A DNA stretch of 55,723 nt, taken from contig CAYFIY010000004.1 of assembly GCA_964343275.1 (NCBI GenBank), forward strand, positions 1 through 55,723, given 5' to 3'. The translations under genes and the position numbers were made by a program. The DNA is from Candidatus Hadarchaeota archaeon. Lineage in GTDB: Archaea > Hadarchaeota > Hadarchaeia > Hadarchaeales > Hadarchaeaceae. How positions within the stretch are numbered: position 1 is the first letter of the stretch; each line of letters begins with the position of its first letter. This document shows positions 26,460-28,397 of the stretch, piece by piece. A model generated the notes under the pieces. It was not told where the DNA came from, did no database searches, and saw only the letters and a program-made list of their open reading frames with translations.

Positions 26460-26903
26460 ATGCCTAAATCAGGTTATTCCGTCAATGTAGATGGTCCAGC
26501 TGCTATGGCTATCGGGAATGAGAGAAGGATATCTCCCAAGCATGCTATGGAGGTTTGTCGGGCAATCAGGGGCATGAGCTTGAGGGGTGCGAAAGAATAT
26601 CTGGGGGCGGTACAAATAAAGAAAAAATCGGTTCTTTTCATCAGACATCGAAAGAAGATTCCCCATCGAGGGGCAGGTGGTGCCGGAAGATACCCGGTGA
26701 AGGCAGCACGGGAGATTTTAAAGGTATTGTATAACGCTGAAGCCAATGCAGGTTATAAGGGCTTGGATGCGGAAAATCTTCGAGTTGTCCACGCCAGCGC
26801 TTACAAGGGTATTACTATTCCGGGTTATATTCCAAGGGCGATGGGGCGGACATCACCCGCCAACACGCCTCTGACCAACATAGAGATAATTCTTAAGGGT
26901 TGA
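26460..26903 (+). CDS. rpl22: 50S ribosomal protein L22
   Basis: ISPKH..EVC, GRYPVKAA, PRAMGR. Confidence 0.96.
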   Translation: MPKSGYSVNVDGPAAMAIGNERRISPKHAMEVCRAIRGMSLRGAKEYLGAVQIKKKSVLFIRHRKKIPHRGAGGAGRYPVKAAREILKVLYNAEANAGYKGLDAENLRVVHASAYKGITIPGYIPRAMGRTSPANTPLTNIEIILKG

Positions 26904-27616
26904 CATCAGTGCCAGTCGAACGTACTTTCATAAAAAAAGGCATTAAACGCGTCGAGCTTGAAACTTTTTTGGCAAATGAACTTGAGCGCGCGGGTTACGG
27001 CGGGGTTGATATAAGGAGAATTCTCACCGGTACAAGAGTGGCAGTCTACGTGGAAAGGCCTGGAATGGTGATAGGTCGGAAGGGAAAAAGCATCAAGCAA
27101 CTCACAGATGACCTCGAACAAAAATTCGGATTGGAAAAACCTCAGGTAGAGGTTGTGGAGATTCCCAACCCACAACTGTCAGGACCGATAATGGCTAAAC
27201 GCATAGCCTTCTCATTGGGGAGGGGGATAAAAGTGCGAAGGGTAGGGCACGGCATGGTCAGGACTATCATGGGCGCTGGAGCGAGGGGGGTAGAGATCGT
27301 AATTTCCGGAAGATTTGCTGGGGAACGTTCGAGAACCGCAAGGTTTTACCAAGGATACTTGAGCAAGGCTGGCGAGCCCGTAAAAAAATTTGTCAGTCAT
27401 GGTCAAGCCGTGGCGAAGTTGAAACCAGGGATAGTTGGTATAAAGGTCGGTATAATGCCTCCCGACATTGCCCTACCCGGTGAAATTAAGGTACCGGAAG
27501 TGGAGGCTAAAACTCACGAAGCGGCGACTAAGGAGCAGCCCACACACGAAAAGGTTGAAAAGGATGCGGGACTAGTCTCTGAGGAAGGTGCCCAAAATGG
27601 CAACGATAAAAGTTAA
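26900..27616 (+). CDS. rps3: 30S ribosomal protein S3
   Basis: RAGYGG, RPGMVIGRKG KH loop, GARGVEIVISG. Confidence 0.97.
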   Translation: MTSVPVERTFIKKGIKRVELETFLANELERAGYGGVDIRRILTGTRVAVYVERPGMVIGRKGKSIKQLTDDLEQKFGLEKPQVEVVEIPNPQLSGPIMAKRIAFSLGRGIKVRRVGHGMVRTIMGAGARGVEIVISGRFAGERSRTARFYQGYLSKAGEPVKKFVSHGQAVAKLKPGIVGIKVGIMPPDIALPGEIKVPEVEAKTHEAATKEQPTHEKVEKDAGLVSEEGAQNGNDKS

Positions 27617-27806
27617 GGAAATCAGGGCCATGAGTGGAGAAGAGATGTTAGAAAAGCTAAGGGAACTTAGAGGGGAACTGGCCAGAGCGCGGGCCACGGC
27701 AGCCGCGGGGGGGTCGCTGGAAAATCCGGCGAAGATACGCGAGCTCAAGCGAGGGGTTGCAAGAATGCTCACAATTTATAAAGAAAAACAAAAAGGAGTT
27801 GCATAA
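27597..27806 (+). CDS. rpl29: 50S ribosomal protein L29
   Basis: EIRAMS, ENPAKIRELKR..AR.LT. Confidence 0.95.
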   Translation: MATIKVKEIRAMSGEEMLEKLRELRGELARARATAAAGGSLENPAKIRELKRGVARMLTIYKEKQKGVA

Positions 27807-28117
27807 TCTCGCGAGAAATCTGCAAGGTTTGTGGATTACCTAAGGAGCTTTGTGTTTGCGAGGAGATCGCTCGCGAACAGCAACGAATAACTGTCTACTC
27901 CATAAAGCGAAAGTTCGGTAAAATTGTAACAATTATCGAGGGGCTGAATGAGAAACAAATAAGCATCAAGGATCTCGCCAAGAGACTCAAGTCCAAACTC
28001 GCTTGCGGCGGAACATCTAAAGATGGTAGAATTGAGCTCCAAGGGCGACATAAAGAACGAGTCAAAAAAGTGCTGATAAATATGGGATTCTCCCAAGAGA
28101 TGATTGATATTAGGTAG
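27806..28117 (+). CDS. sui1: Translation initiation factor aIF1 (SUI1) with probable non-canonical ATC start, missed by ORF track
   Basis: Manual translation (I/M)SREICKVCGLPKELCVCEEIAREQQRI...KRKFGKIVTIIEG...LKSKLACGGT.KDGRIELQGRH...MGF. Canonical position between rpl29 and rnp1. In-frame TAA at 27779 upstream and no ATG/GTG/TTG before the conserved N-terminus. Confidence 0.93.
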   Translation: MSREICKVCGLPKELCVCEEIAREQQRITVYSIKRKFGKIVTIIEGLNEKQISIKDLAKRLKSKLACGGTSKDGRIELQGRHKERVKKVLINMGFSQEMIDIR

Positions 28118-28124
28118 GGGCACC

Positions 28125-28397
28125 ATGTCTGTTACTACAAAAAATATTTTGCGACACGAGCTTATTGGGCTCGAGGCTCAGGTCATAAGTAGTTCTGACC
28201 ATACATTACTGGGGACCTTTGGCAAAATCTTGGACGAGACGCGCGGCATCTTGGTGATAGAACACCTGTCGGATGCAAAATTTATCTCCAAATCAGGATC
28301 TACTTTTGAGATAAGATTGCCTGACGGCCAGAAAGTAGCCGTAAAGGGTGATAAGCTGGTGGGGCGGCCTGCGGAAAGGGTCAGGAGGAAGAGGTGA
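28125..28397 (+). CDS. rnp1: Ribonuclease P protein component 1 (Rpp29)
   Basis: [25 protein letters not shown]. Confidence 0.94.

Follow-up and report, generated by a model that had tools for sequence, protein, structure and literature searches.

Where does translation of an initiation factor begin when its gene offers no ATG, GTG or TTG near the N-terminus? The question is raised by the gene of aIF1, a SUI1-family factor, in 55,723 nucleotides of DNA from Candidatus Hadarchaeota archaeon (assembly GCA_964343275.1, contig CAYFIY010000004.1, positions 1 to 55,723); this whole stretch is called the window below, and it belongs to a Hadarchaeum metagenome-assembled genome (MAG), G000. A first, sequence-only reading had proposed that aIF1 starts here at ATC and that a scarcity of aIF1 would permit initiation of its own gene. 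Comparison with relatives points to initiation at a near-cognate codon in most of the window's family, and such a start may make the synthesis of aIF1 self-limiting.

The aIF1 frame in the window

The window has a G+C content of 47.7% and carries an archaeal ribosomal-protein cluster, in which Pfam matches give the gene order S3, L29, SUI1/aIF1, RNase P p29 and S17. The parts of the locus are the following.

27803-28117, forward strand: aIF1/SUI1 coding sequence (CDS), 104 codons from ATA or 103 from ATC, stop TAG at 28115-28117
27779-27781, forward strand: TAA in the aIF1 frame, upstream closure of the frame
27794-27801, forward strand: Shine-Dalgarno-like AGGAGTTG within the 3' end of rpl29, with the GGAG core at 27795-27798; relatives have GGAGGTG at the same place
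27803-27805, forward strand: candidate start ATA, overlapping the rpl29 stop (ATAA)
27806-27808, forward strand: candidate start ATC, 6 nt after the GGAG(T) core
27821-27859, forward strand: Cys codons of the N-terminal zinc knuckle (CxxC...CxC), upstream of every canonical start codon
28070-28072, forward strand: GTG, the first in-frame canonical codon, codon 89 counted from ATC and too late for a functional protein
27597-27806, forward strand: rpl29 (ribosomal protein L29) CDS, Pfam Ribosomal_L29 66.3 bits, stop TAA at 27804-27806
26900-27616: S3 gene (Pfam)
28125-28397, forward strand: RNase P protein p29 (rnp1) gene, directly downstream, Pfam RNase_P-MRP_p29 73.3 bits

The aIF1 frame is intact from the upstream TAA to the TAG, and no ATG, GTG or TTG occurs in it between TAA 27779 and codon 89; the sequence-only reading had described the frame, its place after rpl29 and its upstream closure correctly in every detail, and the rpl29 stop and the GGAG core also lie where it had put them. 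The SUI1 profile (PF01253) matches the product with 70.8 bits against a cut-off of 25.5, over profile positions 1-76 of 77, and the MAG (1.40 Mb, 90% complete) has no other SUI1 match; both the SUI1 domain and the four zinc-knuckle Cys codons lie far upstream of GTG 28070. The solved aIF1 chain 4mo0_A aligns with the window protein at E = 2.7e-36 (query residues 4-103 to chain residues 3-102), and, since only two chain residues precede the aligned EIC, the true N-terminus must be no more than a few codons away from 27806. The SUI1 domain, the zinc knuckle with a full-length match, the position between rpl29 and p29 and the single copy all mark the gene as aIF1. The neighbouring S3, L29, RNase P p29 and S17 genes each have a canonical start codon available. 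Besides ATA 27803 and ATC 27806, two near-cognate codons stand close to the N-terminus, AGG 27794 as part of the Shine-Dalgarno sequence and ATC 27818 immediately ahead of the first Cys; of the four, only ATA 27803 and ATC 27806 seem plausible as starts.

The start codon across Hadarchaeota and other archaea

Of the phylum's 66 species genomes, 65 yielded an aIF1 gene and 64 a readable junction with rpl29, one being cut by a contig end; 45 of these genomes belong to the window's family (f1) and 19 to five families that serve as the outgroup. All 19 outgroup genomes have ATG four codons before the first Cys, and at this very position 34 of the 45 family genomes, spread over ten genera, have CTG. 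The rest of the family comprises three genomes with GTG at the Met1 position, all of genus g12, five with ATG two codons upstream, overlapping the TGA of rpl29 (G042-G045 and G017), two with ATA in place of that upstream ATG (the window's G000, and G015), and G024, which is unclear, with an in-frame GTG inside its Shine-Dalgarno sequence. A canonical start is thus missing at aIF1 in 36 of the 45 genomes, a recurrence that exceeds chance; 27 of the 34 CTG-type genomes, the window and G015 lack any canonical codon in the interval from the upstream in-frame stop to the first Cys. Independent metagenome contigs of Hadarchaeota-like origin repeat the pattern (CTG 13, GTG 5 and ATG 1 among 19), and the CTG directly follows two stops in 9 of the 13 CTG-type contigs. 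Among 128 aIF1 loci of other archaea, mostly Thermoplasmatota, 121 have ATG, 7 have GTG and none has a near-cognate codon. The zinc knuckle and the aIF1 protein as a whole are conserved at 77-83% identity. Tabulating the Met1 codon of relatives had been suggested as a check, in which a recurrent ATC, ATT, ATA or CTG would speak for the proposal, and the family-wide CTG, together with the second occurrence of ATA in G015, bears it out.

Is this CTG a start codon, or plain leucine? An alignment of 32 distinct CTG-type genes of modal length, with the Met and Trp columns left out, contains 38 columns invariant in amino acid, and column 1 (CTG) is the sole one of them to keep a single codon throughout; leucine is conserved in six other columns, each of which draws on 4-6 synonymous codons, with TTG in up to 16 of the 32 genes. 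TTG, a canonical start one step away from CTG, never stands at column 1 in the 34 genomes and 13 contigs. The CTG usually lies 3 nt after the rpl29 stop; GGAGGT precedes it by 9-10 nt in 30 of the 34 genomes, and 32 have TGA or TAA in its frame two codons before it. The codon between that stop and CTG varies freely (GAG 18, GCA 5, eight other codons, and TAG once), and the first canonical codon downstream is found anywhere from codon 4 to codon 88. Judged from these alignments, the properties taken together are the signature of a start codon under constraint at the nucleotide level, and near-cognate initiation of aIF1 is given a probability of about 0.9. In being shared by 34 of the 45 genomes as the sole codon-invariant column, the weak CTG is conserved beyond neutral expectation.

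The sequences around the CTG also bear on programmed recoding, that is, on a fusion of L29 and aIF1 by stop readthrough or on a +1 frameshift from the ATG of an ATGA overlap. Such recoding would fit the stop found two codons before CTG in the aIF1 frame of 32 of the 34 CTG-type genomes, and also the ATG or GTG that overlaps this stop in the -1 frame in 24 of them. Against it, rpl29 and aIF1 lie in different frames in the window, two consecutive stops precede CTG in G009 and in the 9 metagenome contigs, G016 and G023 keep CTG with no in-frame stop at this place, and in 10 of the 34 genomes the overlapping triplet is GTA, ATA or some other one that is not a start codon; the invariant CTG would be explained by neither readthrough nor frameshift. 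Recoding is therefore considered extremely unlikely. Programmed recoding of L29-aIF1 was also tried as a candidate in its own right and rejected, as no frame relation and no shift or readthrough site is common to all members. A search for conserved RNA structure around the start found none (consensus energy -1.39 kcal/mol, 0 compensatory pairs, z = -0.32).

Truncated proteins do appear in databases, which is what would be expected if the gene were a pseudogene or if a protein shortened at the N-terminus were made from an internal canonical codon. JGI and Logan records (P0004, P0020, P0035, P0047, P0063, P0089) predict forms of 99, 96 and 93 amino acids that start inside the zinc knuckle. The first canonical codon wanders, however, over the range given above in CTG-type genomes and to codon 89 in the window, the shortened forms lose invariant zinc-knuckle cysteines, the frame is intact, and aIF1 is the sole copy in each of the 65 phylum genomes with a match, so that decay or truncation has a negligible chance of being the explanation; the 93-99-aa entries look like gene-caller artefacts of a missing canonical start. 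NCBI records read CTG as Met and give proteins of 102 amino acids that begin with MQEICK or MPEVCK. The earlier statement that gene callers would miss such genes consequently holds for the truncated JGI and Logan forms and fails for the NCBI records. As far as our searches show, the near-cognate start of aIF1 is latent in databases and has been neither described nor interpreted. Readthrough fusion with L29, the +1 shift, RNA structure, and pseudogene or truncation were grouped as EXCLUDED ALTERNATIVES.

An error of sequencing or assembly in the window, where the real codon would be ATG within an ATGA or TAATG overlap, is very unlikely. The MAG is of low depth (about 4-6 in Logan contigs), a single base change gives ATG at either candidate, and the aIF1 gene of S. 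solfataricus was formerly mis-annotated as interrupted through a sequencing error, according to the available text of PMC8211752. On the other side, 27551-28193 is matched with 0 differences by a Logan contig that was assembled separately from run X1; X1 is possibly the source sample of the MAG itself, and this match is then not independent. Positions 27798-27995 are also spanned by an RNA-library contig (X8) from a different study, which differs in one letter at a position that is not reported; runs X3 and X5 give no coverage of the junction and have no bearing on it, and no relative closer than 83% identity was found in the metagenome contig collection. With such weak confirmation at the level of reads, the case rests on comparison with relatives: the ATAA junction recurs in G015, which belongs to a different genus, a canonical start is absent from most of the family regardless of the window, and G000 contains several further near-cognate starts.

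A tree of the 3' part of S3, rpl29 and aIF1 that omits the junction groups G000 with CTG-type members of its genus (SH-aLRT 95) and G015 with ATG-type members of g9 (SH-aLRT 96), which implies that the ATAA junction arose twice, each time in place of a usable start. The six start states require at least 8 changes on the tree. The simplest route to ATAA would pass through an in-frame ATGA intermediate, followed by a single G-to-A change that also turns TGA into TAA. In the same S3-L29-aIF1 tree (L017, L021, L023), G026 (family f3) and G030 and G040 (family f4), all with ATG, nest inside f1, beside g12, g3 and g5 (SH-aLRT 99); either CTG reverted to ATG in these lineages, or the gene tree departs from the taxonomy.

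Which of its two candidates the window uses is a closer matter. Homology favours ATA 27803, whose counterparts are the ATA of G015 and, in G017 and G042-G045, the ATG within the ATGA overlap. The spacing favours ATC 27806, since the gap between the Shine-Dalgarno sequence and the start is 6-9 nt in 22 of 27 confident GGAGG-led starts of G000, and the gap is 6 nt for ATC and 3 nt for ATA (for comparison, 10 nt for the CTG and 3 nt for the upstream ATG of relatives). Weighing the two, ATA appears to have slightly better than even chances and ATC somewhat less than even ones; the preference of the sequence-only reading for ATC over ATA is not upheld. The ATA/ATC form of the window is itself confined to two genomes, G000 and G015.

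Apparent near-cognate starts in other genes

Near-cognate starts are not confined to aIF1. Stop-to-stop frames were compared between G000 and G014, a CTG-type genome of another genus (about 1.17 Mb), and both were then compared with the outgroup genome G025 (family f2) over 0.8 Mb (C1 1-420000 and C2 1-380000). Earlier scans of G000, for codons at Shine-Dalgarno spacing and for coding gaps, were too noisy for counts and gave leads only; in the coding-gap scan aIF1 itself was masked by shadow frames. A loose criterion flagged 207 of 935 ortholog pairs, mainly alignments that extended by a few residues into a conserved 5' region, along with stretches of rRNA and frames that overlap, and stricter filters and reading by eye were applied. 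This left 576 well-aligned pairs of G000 and G014 frames, and in 510 of them both members show a canonical start at the conserved N-terminus. Loci of G000 with a probable near-cognate start include the following.

C1:38712-38906 (L227:413-607): rpoK (Rpb6/K, Pfam 36.1 bits), ATT 7 nt downstream of a GGGGG motif, close behind the stop of the thermosome gene
C16:14899-16011 (L228), reverse strand: 3-dehydroquinate synthase II (DHQS), CTG directly after an in-frame TAA
C11:17923-19416 (L351), reverse strand: archaeosine tRNA-guanine transglycosylase (arcTGT)
C2:20726-22087 (L353), reverse strand: FAD-dependent oxidoreductase
C11:13872-15737 (L350), reverse strand: RACo-like protein, ATA directly after TAG, vs ATG in G014
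C45:2555-3751 (L352): HtrA-like protease, CTG vs TTG
C2:48296-49807 (L354): Mrp/Nuo antiporter subunit, CTG vs GVG-type GTG in G014
C10:34297-34770 (L355): PUA protein, ATT or CTG

The Pfam domains of the DHQS, RACo-like, HtrA-like, Mrp/Nuo and PUA proteins reach the very N-terminus, and these five genes, with hisF, were the cases that reading by eye found convincing. The DHQS of 29 other loci (L231-L259) has an aligned TTG in 25, ATG in 1 and TTG one codon upstream in 2, the last of the 29 being impossible to align where its contig is cut. Outgroup families have ATG or GTG 2-5 codons upstream in arcTGT, and one outgroup locus of the FAD protein (L454) has CTG. A probable ACG start is also seen for hisF in G000 (ATG in G025) and for TyrRS in G014 (ATG in G000). 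A hexapeptide-repeat acetyltransferase (G000:C9:5175-5609, L229:176-610) was also seen with no canonical start near its N-terminus and with ATT 5 nt after GGAGGGGGAG.

A set of these results, with some from the aIF1 gene itself, weighs against the idea that the weak aIF1 start serves a feedback loop. In 42 of the 576 pairs, no canonical start lies near the conserved N-terminus in one of the two genomes, and the codon aligned to the partner's start is near-cognate in 14 of the 32 one-sided pairs that have such a codon (CTG 8, ACG 2, ATC 2, ATA 1 and AGG 1), vs about 11% by chance. Near-cognate starts amount to about 1-1.5% of the compared conserved genes in G000, G014 and G025, a rate that applies to pairs of Hadarchaeota and is not calibrated on genome pairs of other phyla. 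Such a frequency seems elevated. Among 30 rpoK loci (L260-L289), 20 start with ATT, 4 with ATA and 1 with ATG, the other 5 not being aligned at residue 1, and the near-cognate ones include loci of family f4, where aIF1 has ATG; arcTGT has ATT, ATC or ATA in 14 of 19 f1 loci (relatives L396-L424); and the FAD protein has ACG where others have ATG or TTG in 14 of 29 loci (relatives L425-L454), among them all 8 genomes of the window's genus, with no canonical codon available in 9 of the 14. Over 353 pairs, G025, whose aIF1 has ATG, has apparent starts at CTG (two), ATC (one) and ATA (one), which indicates that permissive initiation is phylum-wide, older than the CTG of aIF1 and independent of it; with other near-cognate starts in the genome, the weak aIF1 start is not a dedicated oddity. 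In aIF1 itself, a valine codon, GTG, immediately precedes the first Cys in 7 of the 34 CTG-type genomes and is a possible alternative start, several lineages have gone back to GTG or ATG (g12, g9, g11 and possibly G026, G030 and G040), so that a weak start seems dispensable, and related genomes are not independent samples.

These observations are those expected of a permissive lineage that uses CUG, AUU, AUA and ACG as ordinary weak starts, with no feedback dedicated to aIF1; CTG would have been fixed in the ancestor of the family, where it would set a low and constant output within a highly expressed ribosomal operon, and the ATA/ATC of the window would be drift. Along with the frequency of near-cognate starts and the phylum-wide ATT/ATA of rpoK, changes found in G000 only (DHQS from TTG to CTG, the RACo-like protein from ATG to ATA) and the repeated replacement of the aIF1 start by GTG or ATG speak for it. 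It gives no account of why TTG never takes the place of CTG, and any discrimination of aIF1 against near-cognate codons, such as the available text of PMC4705826 describes for S. solfataricus, necessarily results in some feedback. This explanation is the main and a serious rival of the feedback, with chances that fall short of even.

The tRNA set of G000 adds little. ARAGORN, run on this 90% complete MAG, returned no initiator-type tRNA-Met and one intron-containing, elongator-like tRNA(CAU). It also reported a tRNA with anticodon CTA, labelled Pyl, at G000:C6:25835-25903 (reverse strand), which may be a false call.

Possible self-limiting synthesis of aIF1 and its precedents

The preferred reading is that the weak start of aIF1 limits the synthesis of the factor. 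According to the available text of PMC4705826 and PMC6237735, AUU and other non-canonical codons are disfavoured by the aIF1 of S. solfataricus. As aIF1 is the factor that destabilises initiation complexes on non-AUG codons, its own synthesis should then be self-limiting. In the scheme proposed here, aIF1 would be initiated at a near-cognate codon, ATA 27803 or ATC 27806 in the window and CUG in most of the family; the Shine-Dalgarno sequence within the 3' end of rpl29 would place the initiation complex there, probably with the help of ribosomes that terminate at the adjacent or overlapping rpl29 stop, and the initiator tRNA would read the near-cognate codon. The Hadarchaeum aIF1 would discriminate against this start, and its synthesis would fall when the factor is abundant and rise when it is scarce, which would make a homeostatic loop with a measurable gain; the weak codon would be kept by selection. 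The invariant CTG and the two independent replacements by ATA suggest that the weakness of the start is selected. The start site of the gene is itself suboptimal, as in the infC and eIF1 circuits, with only ATA or ATC available before codon 89. A functional feedback of aIF1 on its own near-cognate start is given a probability of about 0.5, with the observations gathered above counting against it.

PMC4705826, in the text available, states that bacterial IF3 is autoregulated via an AUU start and eukaryotic eIF1 via a poor AUG context (citing Ivanov et al. 2010), just as the sequence-only reading had stated. With infC, the gene of IF3, the present case shares a factor that rejects non-canonical starts and whose own gene has a conserved non-canonical start behind a Shine-Dalgarno sequence, and feedback is predicted on the same grounds (PMC4705826, available text). 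Unlike the infC case, that of aIF1 involves an unrelated protein and the codon CUG (AUA or AUC in the window), in a ribosomal operon and 3 nt after the upstream stop or overlapping it; near-cognate starts also appear to be unusually frequent elsewhere in the genomes. The likeness to eIF1 (SUI1) is one of orthologs, with synthesis tied to a suboptimal start that the factor disfavours (PMC4705826, available text). In the scanning system of eukaryotes, however, eIF1 keeps AUG and weakens its flanking context, whereas in aIF1 the codon itself is non-AUG and would be placed by the Shine-Dalgarno sequence and translational coupling.

In vitro work on aIF1 of S. solfataricus and P. abyssi supplies the premise of discrimination against non-canonical codons (PMC6237735 and PMC4705826, available text) but, unlike the present case, reports neither a non-canonical aIF1 start nor autoregulation in the text available for either paper. 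Within the available text of PMC6237735 the word 'autoregulation' occurs in the reference list only; that of the 2020 review PMC7531240 contains no form of autoregul*, near-cognate, CUG, AUU or feedback, and its sole 'non-canonical' concerns eukaryotic eIF5B. An earlier claim of unusual decoding of an archaeal aIF1 was that of S. solfataricus P2, whose gene was annotated as interrupted by a -1 frameshift (2021 recoding review PMC8211752, available text); by the same text this frameshift vanished on re-sequencing, while dozens of genomes and contigs, each assembled independently, share the Hadarchaeota pattern. Literature searches turned up no report of either a non-canonical start or autoregulation for archaeal aIF1, in agreement with the sequence-only reading, by which such a circuit is not known to have been described for archaea.

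A wider reading joins the feedback to the other near-cognate starts: Hadarchaeota would initiate at lowered stringency and maintain a standing set of near-cognate genes, and the aIF1 start would act as the set-point that keeps this set expressed. The set would comprise rpoK throughout the phylum, arcTGT, the FAD protein and aIF1 throughout the family, and sporadic cases, making up about 1% or more of conserved genes. On the present comparisons this wider reading seems rather unlikely.

For annotation, the consequence is that gene callers limited to ATG, GTG and TTG truncate or lose an essential gene, that of aIF1, in Hadarchaeota, and the same probably happens to about 1% of other genes, which affects completeness estimates and protein databases. 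For the biology of Hadarchaeota, the phylum represents a natural system for relaxed start-codon selection, and the CUG idea is testable in existing archaeal in vitro initiation systems. IF3/infC in bacteria and eIF1 in eukaryotes tie the level of a fidelity factor to its own weak start, and our literature searches found no archaeal counterpart; a family-wide, nucleotide-invariant CUG on aIF1, if autoregulatory, would be a third and convergent example. Should the reading of lowered stringency with aIF1 as its set-point be true, autoregulation of start-codon fidelity would be convergent in all three domains of life.

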